A stretch of 24,000 nt of DNA, taken from contig MFKT01000018.1 in assembly GCA_001781125.1 (NCBI GenBank), forward strand, positions 4,595-28,594, in the 5' to 3' direction. Made by a program: the position numbers and the translations under genes. The stretch is from Candidatus Kaiserbacteria bacterium RIFCSPHIGHO2_01_FULL_53_29 (GTDB lineage Bacteria > Patescibacteriota > Minisyncoccia > Phycocordibacterales > UBA2100). Under the pieces are notes generated by a model. That model was not told the DNA's origin and did not search any database. It saw only the letters and a list, made by a program, of their open reading frames with translations. Below are positions 6,342-22,336 of the stretch, piece after piece (position 1 is the first letter of the stretch; every line of letters begins with the position of its first letter).

Positions 6342-6683
6342 TTATTTTTTCTCGAGAGTCTCGGAGTGATCGAGAATTACTTCAAAGATTTTTCGCGCCG
6401 CTTCTTCGGATATACCCAGATCTTTGGCGACTGCGATTCTTGAACTCATCACCTCATTTCTTCGTTTCTCGTCACGCACTTCAAGGCCTTTTTCTTGCTT
6501 AAGTTTTCCGATCTCAACGACGGATTTAAGGCGCTCTGCAAGCGCCAGAAGAAGTTCTTTATCTGCCGCATCGATCTCGGCGCGCAATCTCTCCAGCTCG
6601 CTTGACCCCGTTAGAGAACTACCTTTCGGGGGTGTGGTTGAGGAATCATCATTCTCTAACGGGGTTGACATAGAGCCCATCAT
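6342..6683 (-). CDS. Monofunctional chorismate mutase (AroQ-class, all-helical) with a Ser/Thr-rich N-terminal extension
   Basis: ELERLRAEIDAADKELLLALAERLKSVVEIGKLKQEKGLEVRDEKRRNEV matches the helix-1/helix-2 signature (R...D..ll.Ll.eR........K....l...d..Re) of AroQ chorismate mutases. It is convergent with pheA, with 3 nt between the stop codons. Confidence 0.8.
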   Translation of the reverse strand: MMGSMSTPLENDDSSTTPPKGSSLTGSSELERLRAEIDAADKELLLALAERLKSVVEIGKLKQEKGLEVRDEKRRNEVMSSRIAVAKDLGISEEAARKIFEVILDHSETLEKK

Positions 6684-6699: not shown

Positions 6700-6901
6700 T
6701 AGTTAAAGCCTTTGATTCGGGGGATGGGCCCGAATCGTCTATGGACAAGGCGATCTCTGCATGAGTGGAGATCCGGATTCCTCCGTAAAAAGGATAACTG
6801 ATATCTTACGAGAGCCAGTGAGTTATAAATTAAGGTGGTATCGCGGAAACCCGCCCTTATTGCACAAGGTATGATTGTGCAGTGAGGGCGGCTTTCATTT
6901 T
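6700..6901 (+). promoter_or_regulatory. T-box riboswitch leader, candidate specifier UGG (tRNA-Trp)
   Basis: T-box core AAGGUGGUAUCGCGG lies at 6832-6846. The antiterminator is AAGG/CCUU plus the 7-nt bulge UGGUAUC plus GCGG/CCGC. A competing terminator lies at 6851-6901. A Stem I-like helix spans 6708-6751, with UGG-A at 6742-6745 in its 3' internal loop. Stem II spans 6752-6773, an F-box-like CCGUAA lies at 6783-6788, and Stem III spans 6795-6826. Confidence 0.85.
6851..6901 (+). terminator. Intrinsic terminator of the trp T-box leader
   Basis: CCGCCCU (6851-6857) pairs with AGGGCGG (6885-6891). The inner helix is UGCACAA (6861-6867) / UUGUGCA (6875-6881). The tail is CUUUCAUUUU. Confidence 0.8.
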
Positions 6902-6952: not shown

Positions 6953-8299
6953 ATGCAATTACCGAAAATAAAAATAGGGCAGAAGCCCACCTACATCAAA
7001 ATCGCGGAGGATGTGGACTTTTTCGGGTTGTTCCAAAAGATCGAACGGGAGTTTGAGACCTGTTTTGTTTTCGAATCTCTCGGTGAAGAAGGGAAATTTT
7101 CCCGCTATTCGATCATTGGGTTTGATCCTACGCATCTTATTTCTGCACGCGGCGACGACCTCATTGTCGATGGCCAGAGCTTCGCGGTGGAAAATCCCTA
7201 TGGCGCACTGCGCAAAATGATGCCACCTCGCGCGATAGGGAAAGAGTATGCGGGTGGCCTTGTGGGATACCTCGGATACGATGCCGTGCGGTATTTCGAG
7301 CCGTCGCTCCACATTAAAACACACGAGCACTTTCCGGCGTTCATGTTTGGTGTCTATACCGACGGCCTCGTTCTCGACAAGCTCACCAACGAGCTCTTCT
7401 ACTTTTACTGCGATACCGATAAGAGCGAGCTTTTGAGGAAAATCATGCACACAACCTACACGAAAGAGCCGCTTACGGTAACGTACATAAAAGACGGCAT
7501 GAGCAAGAAAGAACACGCGACCGCTGTCGAGAGTGTGAAAGAGCTCATCAGAGCAGGCAATACGTTCCAGTGTGAGGTCGGGTTCAAGACGGAATACAAA
7601 GTTTCTGGCGATACGCTGCAAATATATGAGAAGTTGCGCACCGTGAATCCGTCACCCTTTATGTACTATCTCAAATTTGGCACAAAAAAGGTGATAGGGG
7701 CCTCTCCCGAACTTTTGTTCAGCATTCGCGACGGTGAAATGACGACGCGGCCGCTTGCCGGTACCATCAGGAGAGGAAAAGACGACGCAGAAGACCAGCA
7801 GCTTGCGCGCGAACTGGTGAACGACCCGAAGGAGCGTGCGGAGCACACCATGCTCGTCGATCTCCACCGCAACGACATTGGACGCGTCGCGCAATTCGGT
7901 ACGGTCAAGGTCCGCGATCTGATGAATATAAAGAAATTCAGCCACGTCCAGCATATTTCGAGCGAGGTCGTGGGGCTTATTCGCCCCGAAGAAGATATGT
8001 TCTCGGGTCTTGCGGCGAACTTCCCCGCAGGTACCGTTTCCGGCGCGCCGAAGATCGAAACGATAAAGATCATCGACCGTAACGAGCCCGGGCCCAGGGG
8101 TCCGTATGGCGGCGGGGTGGGGCACTTCGGTTTCAATGGCGATTGTACGTTCGCTCTCGCGATACGGTCCCTATTCATTTCTGATACGCAAGCCTTTGCG
8201 CAGACCTCCGGCGGCATTGTCTACGATTCACAGCCGGAAAAGGAATACGAGGAAGTTACCAACAAGCTCGCTGCTATGAAGAAAGTACTTGATGTATGA
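6953..8299 (+). CDS. trpE: Anthranilate synthase component I
   Basis: Full-length TrpE-like, 448 aa: FESLGEEGKFSRYS (Trp feedback region), GASPELLF, RPLAGTIRRG, EHTMLVDLHRND, FPAGTVSGAPK, GPYGGGVG. Confidence 0.95.
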   Translation: MQLPKIKIGQKPTYIKIAEDVDFFGLFQKIEREFETCFVFESLGEEGKFSRYSIIGFDPTHLISARGDDLIVDGQSFAVENPYGALRKMMPPRAIGKEYAGGLVGYLGYDAVRYFEPSLHIKTHEHFPAFMFGVYTDGLVLDKLTNELFYFYCDTDKSELLRKIMHTTYTKEPLTVTYIKDGMSKKEHATAVESVKELIRAGNTFQCEVGFKTEYKVSGDTLQIYEKLRTVNPSPFMYYLKFGTKKVIGASPELLFSIRDGEMTTRPLAGTIRRGKDDAEDQQLARELVNDPKERAEHTMLVDLHRNDIGRVAQFGTVKVRDLMNIKKFSHVQHISSEVVGLIRPEEDMFSGLAANFPAGTVSGAPKIETIKIIDRNEPGPRGPYGGGVGHFGFNGDCTFALAIRSLFISDTQAFAQTSGGIVYDSQPEKEYEEVTNKLAAMKKVLDV

Positions 8300-17733: not shown

Positions 17734-17862
17734 TGCGCCTCGGCATCGAAAACGTGAGATCCGCTTCAGTAGTGGGTCTTGGCGGGGTTGGCGGTAATCC
17801 TCGAAACCGTATGTTTACCGATGTGTATCGGTACTGATGAGCTCAAAAGAGCGAAACATAAA

Positions 17863-21636: not shown

Positions 21637-21671
21637 GGCAAATGAAAGGGCGGCAGTCGTTGACTGCCGCC
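21637..21671 (-). terminator. Intrinsic terminator after the 95-aa gene
   Basis: Minus-strand RNA GGCGGCAGUC-AAC-GACUGCCGCC is followed by CUUUCAUUUG. Confidence 0.6.
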
Positions 21672-21700: not shown

Positions 21701-21988
21701 CTAAAGACCCCCGATGTAGATGTTGGGACGAGGTTGTGCCGCGCTAGCGAATGCGGCATTAATCAGTTGCTCGGCTTGCGTCGCGGTCGTTCCTTCCGGA
21801 ACTTCCATGAGCCATGCGCACACGCCATTGGCGAGACCAAGGCGTGTTTCAGGCCCGTTGTTGACGTAGCGGACCAACGGCATGCCGATCTTCGCGTCCG
21901 CGAAGACGTTCTTAAGCGAATCACGAAGAGGTCCTTGATGATCGGGCGTTATTCCGCATACCCGAACTTCGAAGTCGTCGCTTTTCAT
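21701..21988 (-). CDS. Hypothetical 95-aa protein under T-box control (MKSDDFEVRVCGITPDHQGPL...NIYIGGL)
   Basis: A strong RBS, AGGAGAAGG, ends 2 nt before ATG 21988. The rest of the listed 170-aa ORF runs through the T-box terminator, so I discard it. No family was recognised with confidence. Confidence 0.6.
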   Translation of the reverse strand: MKSDDFEVRVCGITPDHQGPLRDSLKNVFADAKIGMPLVRYVNNGPETRLGLANGVCAWLMEVPEGTTATQAEQLINAAFASAAQPRPNIYIGGL

Positions 21989-22069: not shown

Positions 22070-22301
22070 TACGCAAATACAAAAATCCGCCCTTACAACA
22101 CGAATACACTTCGTGTAGTAAGGGCGGATTTCTTCCGCGGTGCCACCTTTTTTCTTCTTACTCCGACTATACGTCGGAGTTACCTCTATTACGGGAGAAC
22201 CCCGAGATACCACTTGCGCAGTACCTTACCTGCCGCGTCAGACGCGGACAATTCGGCCCGAACCCCGGCCAGTGCCGGGAACCGAATCTAAGGCTTTTAC
22301 T
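22070..22301 (-). promoter_or_regulatory. Second T-box riboswitch leader (amino-acid specificity not assignable by eye)
   Basis: On the minus-strand RNA, the T-box core AAGGUGGCACCGCGG lies at 22149..22135. The antiterminator is AAGG/CCUU plus the 7-nt bulge UGGCACC plus GCGG/CCGC. The competing terminator, AAAUCCGCCCUUAC...GUAAGGGCGGAUUU followed by UUUUUGUAUUUG, spans 22131..22071. Upstream lie the Stem III hairpin ACUCCGAC-GUAUA-GUCGGAGU, an F-box-like CCGUAA, and a 5' segment AAAGCCUUAGAUUCGG homologous to the trp T-box. Confidence 0.8.
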
Positions 22302-22307
22302 GTCTTT

Positions 22308-22336
22308 ACTGTAAACGATGGCGCTTAAGGTGTCAA
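22308..22336 (-). promoter_or_regulatory. Sigma70-type promoter TTGACA-17 nt-TACAGT for the second T-box
   Basis: On the minus strand, TTGACA lies at 22336..22331 and TACAGT at 22313..22308, with an exact 17-nt spacer. Confidence 0.6.

Follow-up and report, generated by a model that had tools for sequence, protein, structure and literature searches.

A compact T-box riboswitch from a Kaiserbacteria contig that probably reads a serine codon

Introduction

Which transfer RNA is sensed by the second T-box riboswitch on a Candidatus Kaiserbacteria contig, and which gene does it control? The element lies on the minus strand of contig MFKT01000018.1 from Candidatus Kaiserbacteria bacterium RIFCSPHIGHO2_01_FULL_53_29, within the 24,000 nucleotides (nt) that were analysed as a whole (hereafter the window). 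A first T-box at 6705-6860 on the plus strand precedes trpE-trpG-trpD-aroA/aroK-aroC. A first-pass annotation had described the second element as a homologue of the first, but found its cognate tRNA unassignable. The T-box database paper reports T-boxes from Firmicutes, Actinobacteria, Chloroflexi and Deinococcus-Thermus and leaves candidate phyla unmentioned, and in the searchable literature we found no paper that links T-boxes with Patescibacteria, Parcubacteria or the Candidate Phyla Radiation. Here, we provide comparative evidence that both leaders belong to one compact T-box family. The second T-box is best read, with a probability of roughly four in five, as a transcription-attenuating riboswitch that senses uncharged tRNA-Ser via a UCG specifier at 22261-22259.

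Results

Two divergent T-boxes of one compact family

At the gathering threshold, Rfam had no match anywhere in the window. Permissive filters were needed for any match; with them, the T-box model RF00230 (gathering score 93 bits) aligned over its positions 1-219 to the second T-box (22299-22117, minus strand, 29.7 bits, E 0.0037) and over its whole length to the first (6703-6861, plus strand, 44 bits). Both alignments contain a large deletion in Stem I, which in the second T-box has 54 nt against the model's 86, and this truncation accounts for the shortfall in its score. The RF00230 check that the first-pass annotation had proposed is ambiguous as a refutation test, as the match is full length but far under the gathering score. 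Because both leaders were matched so weakly, relatives were sought with a metagenome scan, using a pattern that combined the lineage-specific IIA/B box with the T-box bulge and left Stem I unconstrained. The scan yielded 35 loci; the syntenic locus L002 was reached via the downstream protein (76% protein identity). After duplicates and unrelated loci had been discarded, 20 distinct leaders, the two from the window included, shared one common architecture. Covariance model R1, trained on the 18 leaders from other metagenomes and on no window sequence, matched the second T-box at 22297-22118 on the minus strand with 125.7 bits (E about 1.5e-35, model positions 1-164 of 164) and the first with 108.9 bits; there was no third match in the window. 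The compact family now comprises at least 23 distinct leaders.

The secondary structure of the family is supported by covariation across the 20-leader alignment. An explicit T-box structure of 38 base pairs in nine helices was imposed on this alignment and used instead of an RNAalifold consensus, which contained a spurious helix between the GAGG of the kink-turn (K-turn) and the antiterminator CCUU. Standard pairs fill 95.0% of the cells, compared with 84.5% in column shuffles and 38-52% when partners were slid by 1-3 columns. Compensatory double changes occur in 21 of the 38 pairs, and none of 500 shuffles matched the observed value on any measure. Every helix is at least 86% paired, and seven of the nine, including the IIB pseudoknot, have compensatory changes; the remaining two are the C-stem of the K-turn, with a single varying pair, and the invariant helix IIA. 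The full second leader has a minimum free energy of -107.3 kcal/mol (z = -7.4; 0 of 200 shuffles as stable), which together with the R1 match at 125.7 bits places it far beyond chance. By all these comparisons the second minus-strand element is a real T-box of a divergent subfamily and a paralogue of the trp T-box. The proposed homology with the first T-box is thus borne out by the R1 match and the shared alignment, and the search for orthologous leaders and covariation, suggested in the same first-pass annotation, was answered by the 20 leaders and their 21 covarying pairs.

The specifier position and its probable serine reading

Beyond the K-turn at its base, Stem I of the family consists of a lower helix of 4-6 base pairs (bp; 5-6 in the second T-box), one or two U on the 5' side opposite a 3' bulge of about 5 nt, and an upper hairpin that is free in length and sequence. 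The upper hairpin is missing from the first T-box and from L037, so that their bulge is the apical loop. The register of the specifier is given by nine leaders that precede trp operons, as recognised by BLAST against the window's Trp enzymes (the first T-box, L017, L019, L029, L030, L041, L044, L024 and L037). These read AUUGG-G, GAUGG-G, GUUGG-G, GUGG-G or, apically, GGAUGG-G, and the only triplet common to all of them is UGG, directly followed by G and then by the lower helix. Two Trp-class leaders found later with R1 obey the same UGG-G rule. In the first T-box, this register places the specifier UGG at 6725-6727, within the 7-nt apical loop GGA-UGG-G.

U22261 and G22258 of the second T-box are invariant in 20 of 20 leaders. 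Between them, every Trp-class leader has G-G, and the class of the second T-box has C-(G/A/C). Read in the register of the Trp leaders, this class presents UCG (second T-box, L002, L032, L021), UCA (L039) and UCC (L023), i.e., three synonymous serine codons, each followed by G. Comparison with the family thus offers an assignment where the first-pass annotation had none: the specifier would be UCG at 22261-22259 with the invariant G22258 behind it, and the cognate amino acid is probably serine.

The genes behind the leaders agree with this reading. The leaders L021 and L039 directly precede genes for proteins of 400-414 amino acids (aa) with 2-Hacid_dh domains, whose C-terminal region aligns across the ACT region of an E. 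coli-type SerA model, with the Pfam threshold for ACT reached in L021 only. The best NCBIfam match of both proteins is phosphoglycerate dehydrogenase (E 4e-62 and 3e-56), and the next family follows at about 1e-30. Specifier and pathway therefore correspond at the family level, with UGG-G before nine trp operons and UC(G/A)-G before two serA-like genes. A third serA-like gene, in L014, stands behind a leader that is truncated because its bulge lies off the contig. Homologues of the L021/L039 enzyme are annotated in Minisyncoccia, Paceibacterota and Taylorbacteria. None of six serA homologues checked for an upstream T-box had one, and three had Ser-rich leader peptides instead. At these three independent loci, short upstream open reading frames (ORFs) contain the serine runs TTSSSSSR, CSSSSSP and NNSSSGSS, each followed by a terminator, which as a sequence pattern is the signature of a serine-sensing leader-peptide attenuator.

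The antiterminator bulge reads UGGC, which pairs with a G73 discriminator, in 6 of 6 Ser-class leaders; Trp-class leaders have UGGC or UGGU, which also fits G73. In bacteria, G73 is the discriminator of tRNA-Ser and tRNA-Trp, and tRNA-Phe carries A73 (PMC9976931), so that UGGC favours tRNA-Ser over tRNA-Phe. The suggestion of the first-pass annotation that UGGC implies a G73 discriminator is in line with these data, in an argument that draws on general bacterial identity rules (PMC9976931). Serine is thus favoured by the register of the Trp leaders, the SerA-like targets, the Ser-run leader peptides of their homologues, and the match of UGGC with G73.

Several observations nevertheless count against a serine T-box. 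Its Rfam score lies below the gathering threshold, and its K-turn is non-canonical, with C-A in place of G-A and a hairpin inserted alongside. The serA-like enzymes of L021 and L039 score under the NCBIfam equivalog cut-offs. No gene for tRNA-Ser, tRNA-Trp or tRNA-Phe was found within the window or any fetched locus. The 95-aa target gene has no known link to serine, the neighbourhood of the second T-box is one of aromatic amino-acid biosynthesis, and a UUC (Phe) register is conserved in 6 of 6 Ser-class leaders.

The last two points lead to the strongest, though still unlikely, alternative: a Phe-specific T-box with the specifier UUC at 22262-22260 and G22259 as its purine, one base upstream of the Trp-leader register. 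The base after UUC is a purine (G or A) in five of the six Ser-class leaders, and not only does the second T-box lie among aromatic genes, but the L039 operon also continues into trpC-trpB-trpA. However, this reading requires a one-base shift of register relative to 17 Trp-class leaders and leaves the invariant G22258 unexplained, and in L023 UUC is followed by C, against the rule of a purine after the specifier. Neither the SerA-like targets in L021 and L039 nor the Ser-codon leader peptides before homologous genes would be expected of a phenylalanine switch, and UGGC mispairs with A73 of tRNA-Phe (PMC9976931). As U is the commonest base before the codon in Trp leaders too, ancestry explains its conservation. 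Could the overlapping UUCG answer both tRNA-Phe (UUC) and tRNA-Ser (UCG)? Both frames are conserved across the Ser class, codon ambiguity in a specifier loop has a precedent, as cited in PMC5622331, and the 95-aa gene sits between a serine-consuming and an aromatic pathway. Yet the single UGGC bulge suits G73 only, the upstream U is inherited from Trp leaders, and nothing positive separates a dual from a plain serine reading, which makes the dual reading considerably less likely than the phenylalanine one.

That the second T-box is merely a copy of the trp T-box in decay and without function appears less likely again. Such decay would fit the non-canonical K-turn, the inserted hairpin and the orphan downstream gene, but the nine helices, the promoter and the terminator are all intact, and the R1 score exceeds that of the first T-box (125.7 vs 108.9 bits). 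In addition, compensatory changes separate the second T-box from L002 (in the upper hairpin, e.g., from C-G to U-A), while the encoded protein diverged to 76% identity. Very improbable is also a Trp-specific reading via the UGG that straddles the apical loop (C-ACUG-G, 22274-22269). This UGG is present in L002 as well, G73 suits tRNA-Trp, and the first T-box does use an apical-loop UGG; its GG, however, is base-paired here in a 6-bp stem closed by a 4-nt loop, and the loop varies within the class (AAC(G) in L032, AGAG in L021, a 50-nt insert in L039).

A putative K-turn with an inserted hairpin

The first-pass annotation had sought the specifier in the letters GCAGG at 22233-22229, as the equivalent of UGG-A in the first T-box, and had placed the extra hairpin CCGCG-UCUGA-CGCGG in the specifier-loop region. 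Letters and hairpin are both present, but their interpretation changes with the family alignment. Stem I opens with a K-turn composed of a 3-bp C-stem, a 3-nt bulge and GA, which in members without an insert has the canonical form GCC-NNN-GA ... GA-GGC. G10 and A11 of the K-turn are invariant in 20 of 20 leaders, and the C-stem pair 5:120 covaries (CG in 17, UA in 2, UG in 1). MAFFT and R1 both align C22232-A22231-G22230-G22229-U22228 with the K-turn/C-stem motif of the 19 other leaders; A22231-G22230-G22229 falls on the invariant A-G-G of the family's (G/A)A-GG motif, and R1 treats the hairpin as an insertion. Because of this alignment, GCAGG is to be read from sequence as the closing G of the insert followed by K-turn and base stem, and not as the specifier. 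Of the 18 non-window leaders, 11 have nothing at the insertion site, which lies between the lower helix and the (G/A)A-GG motif. Among these is L002, where the lower helix runs directly into U-GA-GGC with nothing equivalent to 22250-22233. Unrelated inserts occupy the site in L017, L041, L044, L019, L025 and L039, in the second T-box, and in the first, where the mini-hairpin GUC-UAUG-GAC supplied the UAUGGAC that had served as specifier reference in place of the true UGG at 6725-6727.

A specifier within GCAGG, whether CAG (Gln), AGG (Arg) or GCA (Ala), is therefore scarcely credible in spite of its positional likeness to UAUGGAC and the G73 that tRNA-Gln, too, carries, as L002, with the same gene and a higher Rfam score, has nothing of this segment, the A-G-G of GCAGG aligns with the invariant K-turn/C-stem motif, and the UGG of UAUGGAC belongs to an insertion-site mini-hairpin of a kind that the trpE leader L029 lacks.

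A K-turn elaborated into a three-way junction, the K-junction, has reportedly been described by Lilley and co-workers in the thiamine pyrophosphate riboswitch of Arabidopsis. Like the K-junction, the second T-box has a third helix at its putative K-turn, on the non-bulged strand. It differs in that the insert is optional and sequence-variable across homologues.

As a separate observation, a small hairpin with the consensus YCCUGAGNGCARUCGAAGGR recurs in the T-boxes of L017 (5060-5085), L041, L044, L019 and L020. It occurs at the K-turn insertion site, in the A2 loop of the antiterminator and in Stem II, and behaves like a mobile or repeatedly gained mini-module.

Leader layout and switch

The promoter, the inner Stem I hairpin, the antiterminator and the competing terminator with its U-tract were all found where the first-pass annotation had drawn them (Table 1). 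The transcript is predicted to start about 10 nt upstream of the 5' end of the T-box. In the lower Stem I helix (helix 2), 97% of the cells are paired and three of four pairs have compensatory changes; its closing pair is U-G in 10 leaders and G-C in 7. The upper hairpin (helix 3), whose pairs also covary (C-G to U-A in L002), is too short to reach the tRNA elbow, and the double T-loop platform is absent. Neither of the distal platform motifs AGAGA and UGNRA is conserved in this region, which is free in length and sequence across the family. Stem II (helix 4) has compensatory changes in six of eight pairs, with both sides changed in up to 9 of 20 sequences. In IIB, two of four pairs are compensated; pair 176:185 is CG in 15 leaders and UA in 5, and the first T-box has UCCU/AGGA where the second has UCUC/GAGG.

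Table 1. Features of the second T-box and its transcription unit (window coordinates).
Feature	Coordinates	Strand	Evidence and remarks
Sigma-70-type promoter TTGACA-17-TACAGT	22308..22336	-	10/12 consensus matches, 17-nt spacer
T-box leader, Stem I to end of antiterminator	22118..22297	-	R1 and RF00230 matches
K-turn 5' half at Stem I base	22287..22294	-	C-stem GCC, 3-nt bulge UUA, GA; alignment
Stem I body	22252..22286	-	UUCGG(U) 22286-22281 / (G)CCGAA 22257-22252, enclosing upper hairpin and specifier bulge; covariation
Upper Stem I hairpin CCCGGC-ACUG-GCCGGG	22264..22279	-	6 bp, tetraloop
Specifier bulge GUUCGGG	22257..22263	-	proposed UCG 22261-22259 with 3' purine G22258; rival UUC 22262-22260
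Inserted hairpin CCGCG-UCUGA-CGCGG	22233..22247	-	lineage-variable; on non-bulged strand beside K-turn, giving a three-way junction
K-turn 3' half and C-stem	22228..22232	-	C-A then GGU; GGU pairs with GCC 22294-22292
Stem II hairpin	22205..22226	-	9-bp helix closing on UGC-GCAA-GUG; covariation
Stem IIA hairpin and IIB pseudoknot	22183..22204	-	CGGG...CCCG; UCUC 22198-22195 / GAGG 22186-22183; includes CCGUAA box; alignment
Stem III hairpin, then purine run (AAGAAGAAAAAA)	22160..22181	-	compensatory changes in 5/6 pairs (helix 7)
Antiterminator (helices 8 and 9)	22120..22149	-	A1 AAGG 22149-22146 / CCUU 22123-22120; bulge UGGCACC 22145-22139; A2 GCGG 22138-22135 / CCGC 22127-22124; loop AAGAAAU 22134-22128
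Intrinsic terminator	22080..22131	-	long hairpin (22131-22085), then UUUUUG; shares CCGCCCUU with antiterminator 3' strand
95-aa ORF, NCBI OGG53096.1 (hypothetical protein, Candidatus Kaiserbacteria)	21701..21988	-	AGGAG upstream; conservation, AlphaFold model
Terminator-like hairpin ending the unit of the 95-aa gene	21649..21671	-	10-bp stem with 8 G-C pairs, then CUUUCAUUUG

The antiterminator helices A1 and A2 are 99% paired across the 20 leaders, and the UGGC of their 7-nt UGGNACC-type bulge is complementary to the tRNA 3' end GCCA. The terminator hairpin reuses CCGCCCUU from the 3' strand of the antiterminator, a design that is found in the tails of 20 of 20 leaders. Its computed energy is -36.5 kcal/mol, compared with -6.8 kcal/mol for the canonical antiterminator, and it is present in the minimum-energy fold of the full leader.

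These features suggest the following mechanism. Transcription would start at TTGACA-17-TACAGT, and the nascent leader would fold Stem I, Stem II, the IIA/B pseudoknot and Stem III. In the bulge of Stem I, the anticodon of tRNA-Ser would meet the codon UCG 22261-22259, with the invariant purine G22258 behind it. As a platform for docking of the tRNA elbow is lacking in Stem I, we infer that Stem II and the IIA/B module clamp the codon-anticodon helix, by analogy with the solved short-Stem-I ileS T-boxes summarised in PMC7583486. If the tRNA-Ser is uncharged, its 3' end G73-C-C-A could pair with UGGC and stabilise the weak antiterminator against the terminator, and RNA polymerase would read through into the 95-aa gene. 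Charged tRNA-Ser could not pair, so that the terminator would win by default and transcription would stop at the U-tract near 22080.

Beyond the terminator, a motif of the untranslated region, GCAAACCG ... GCUCUUUCUGUUC, lies at 22061-22025 on the minus strand of the window and is conserved in L002 (9925-9965). It recurs in L016, L036, L032 and L021 (about 7330-7380), and is thus common to the Ser leader of the 95-aa gene and to Trp leaders of unrelated genes of unknown function.

The regulated gene

The 95-aa ORF behind the terminator (OGG53096.1) looks like a real gene, to judge from its conserved length, an in-frame excess of synonymous differences and a confident AlphaFold model. Among 5.8 billion and 1.84 billion proteins it had one full-length homologue (76% identity) of conserved length and one 70-aa partial match. 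Of the 43 codons that differ from the former in the reading frame, 20 are synonymous; out of frame, the counts are 9 of 45 and 6 of 43. The AlphaFold model (pLDDT 87.6, pTM 0.81) has the order beta-alpha-beta-beta-alpha-beta. There was no match to the protein in Pfam, NCBIfam or PHROGs, or in a PDB sequence search, and a scan of a genome collection gave a single weak partial match, in a Verrucomicrobia metagenome-assembled genome (MAG) where no T-box was present.

A Foldseek search of the PDB returned weak similarities to the tautomerase superfamily (Cg10062, MIF; TM-score 0.5-0.6, E 6e-4 or weaker), but the N-terminal catalytic Pro-1 is missing, and no function was assigned. A missing pathway enzyme or detached ACT domain was rejected as its identity, as the pathway in the window is already complete, including a CM_2 chorismate mutase. 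The small proteins behind L032 (97 aa) and L023 (about 106 aa) were not accepted as homologues either (BLASTP E 0.15 and 6.8).

A terminator-like hairpin at 21671-21649 follows the gene, and the next promoter (TTGACA-16-TATTAT, 11/12 matches) lies at 21628-21601 on the minus strand. The second T-box would therefore control essentially one gene, with read-through into the downstream aroQ operon possible.

Neighbouring genes and attenuators

The aroQ-aroE-DAHP synthase-aroB...trpC-trpB-trpA operon has this promoter of its own and a leader region at 21628-21436 on the minus strand. A leader ORF (21591-21517) encodes the 24-codon peptide MQTISSRFFGFFYGLSFESSSALL and is followed by the terminator hairpin GGAAACGAGCUCUCGAAAGGGAGCUCGUUUGCUUUU at about 21500-21467; pairing is possible between the 5' arm of the terminator and the 3' end of the ORF (CCUUCGAGAGUUCGU). 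The peptide is conserved in L002, with seven synonymous and two non-synonymous codon differences. This arrangement has the look of a ribosome-mediated attenuator for Phe/Tyr, here in a bacterium of a candidate phylum. The Ser-rich leader peptides before serA homologues, MKAVEKRTTSSSSSRIHFKG, MTFGAQKFICSSSSSPHI and MKATVKCNNSSSGSSKHI (L051/L052 3830-3990, L053 3840-3990, L056 720-880), come from Paceibacterota, Taylorbacteria and a third contig. Behind each of them stands a terminator hairpin (GAAACGAGCCCUCGAAGGGCUCGUUUC) closely like that of the aroQ attenuator in the window. It appears that one attenuator scaffold has been reused with different regulatory codons; it matched no Rfam family.

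Further features of the window concern the pathway itself. Between 5053 and 13583, an aroA-aroK fusion (607 aa) and aroC lie inside the trpEGD operon. The prephenate dehydratase has 185 aa and no ACT domain, a stand-alone CM_2 chorismate mutase is encoded on the opposite strand at 6342-6683, and trpF lies on the strand opposite trpC-trpB-trpA. So complete an aromatic amino-acid pathway stands out in a Parcubacteria-labelled MAG, and mis-binning is possible. In a sub-threshold Rfam match to Hammerhead_3 (17820-17862, plus strand, 23.7 bits, E 0.52), the CUGAUGA...GAAAC core is perfect and stem II (GCUC-AAAA-GAGC) is good, but Stem I has only about one pair, and the match is probably due to chance.

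Discussion

Most parts of canonical class I T-boxes (RF00230; tyrS and glyQS of B. subtilis) are found in the second T-box too. Its Stem I has a putative K-turn at the base, non-canonical in sequence, and a specifier with a purine behind it; Stem II, the IIA/B pseudoknot and Stem III come next, and the 3' half is a standard T-box discriminator, with the UGGNACC bulge, a mutually exclusive terminator and a default off state. In contrast to the canonical leaders, its Stem I has about 54 nt rather than about 85, shows no helix between K-turn and specifier region, and lacks the AG bulge and the distal loop that form the double T-loop platform for the tRNA elbow. In transcriptional T-boxes, an elbow platform on a long Stem I is generally required, and a short Stem I is typical of translational ones (PMC7583486). 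As summarised in that review, the translational ileS T-boxes of Actinobacteria have a short or ultrashort Stem I, with examples from Mycobacterium tuberculosis and Nocardia farcinica. In the features covered by this summary, the compact family agrees with them in a short Stem I without elbow platform, in the retention of Stem II and IIA/B, which are presumably essential, and in a specifier in the apical loop (first T-box, L037) or in a side bulge under a small hairpin. The ileS T-boxes so summarised, however, sequester the ribosome-binding site, sense Ile and belong to Actinobacteria, whereas the second T-box comes from Parcubacteria and ends in a terminator of -36.5 kcal/mol with a U-tract, and the compact family reads Trp or Ser codons. 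There is no sequestration of a Shine-Dalgarno sequence in the second T-box: the alternative helix is the terminator, and AGGAG lies outside the switch, about 80-90 nt downstream of the terminator. The compact family combines a transcriptional read-out with a platform-less Stem I, a combination of which rare earlier examples are possible.

Serine T-boxes are not without precedent. That of serA in Paenibacillus polymyxa, with an AGC specifier and a UGGU bulge, has been proven experimentally (PMC8002221), and others have been predicted in Bacillus and Clostridium. Like it, the second T-box is transcriptional and would respond to tRNA-Ser, and serA-like targets recur in L021 and L039. Unlike the P. 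polymyxa leader with its AGC, long canonical Stem I and UGGU, the compact Ser class has UCG, UCA or UCC, a short Stem I and UGGC, and the target of the second T-box itself is not serA. The overlapping triplets UUC and UCG, both readable in its specifier bulge, are reminiscent of the two-codon NT-box of Clostridium acetobutylicum as cited in PMC5622331; a difference is that the single discriminator-pairing base C of the second T-box suits only tRNAs with G73.

The Ser and Trp classes differ essentially in the second base of the specifier, UCG instead of UGG. With the two specificity columns removed, the second T-box, L002, L032 and L021 still cluster together. L023 (UCC) is nearest to a Trp leader (80% identity, vs at most 73% to other Ser leaders), and L039 (UCA) is nearest to Trp leaders as well (72-73%). 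This hints at more than one switch from Trp to Ser, although the pattern is suggestive only. Such a switch would be easy because both tRNAs carry G73.

Trp-class T-boxes also precede genes other than trp (L026, L014:2560-2724, L022, L025, L016, L036, L021:7130-7293 and L042). Their targets encode a GCS2-like carboxylate-amine ligase (twice), a PPDK_N-domain protein, a 58-aa zinc-ribbon protein, a 108-aa Cys-rich protein and a family of unknown proteins of 140-220 aa, which amounts to an unexpected tryptophan regulon. L025, with a UGG leader near tyrS, was considered as a counter-example to the specifier assignment and set aside, as its T-box controls the 58-aa zinc-ribbon ORF, which has its own terminator, and tyrS has a separate promoter.

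We tentatively propose, as a possibility that we would not yet call probable, that these leaders form an undescribed T-box class native to Parcubacteria/Patescibacteria, which terminates transcription without an elbow platform, tolerates inserts in its K-turn and swaps Trp for Ser specificity by one base, helped by the shared G73, and that its Ser version controls an orphan 95-aa protein that is a new component of the serine-starvation response. Standard annotation misses the compact family because its members score under the Rfam threshold, and model R1 could serve to annotate it. According to reviews, transcriptional T-boxes have a long Stem I because the tRNA must be caught quickly, before the polymerase reaches the terminator; this kinetic argument would be put to a direct test by at least 23 leaders in which a platform-less Stem I occurs together with a strong terminator. 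The one-base difference between Trp and Ser leaders offers a natural and readily testable case of how riboswitch specificity evolves. Candidate-phyla bacteria are generally portrayed as having few biosynthetic abilities, but on this contig a full aromatic amino-acid pathway is present, with two T-boxes and a leader-peptide attenuator as its three layers of RNA control.

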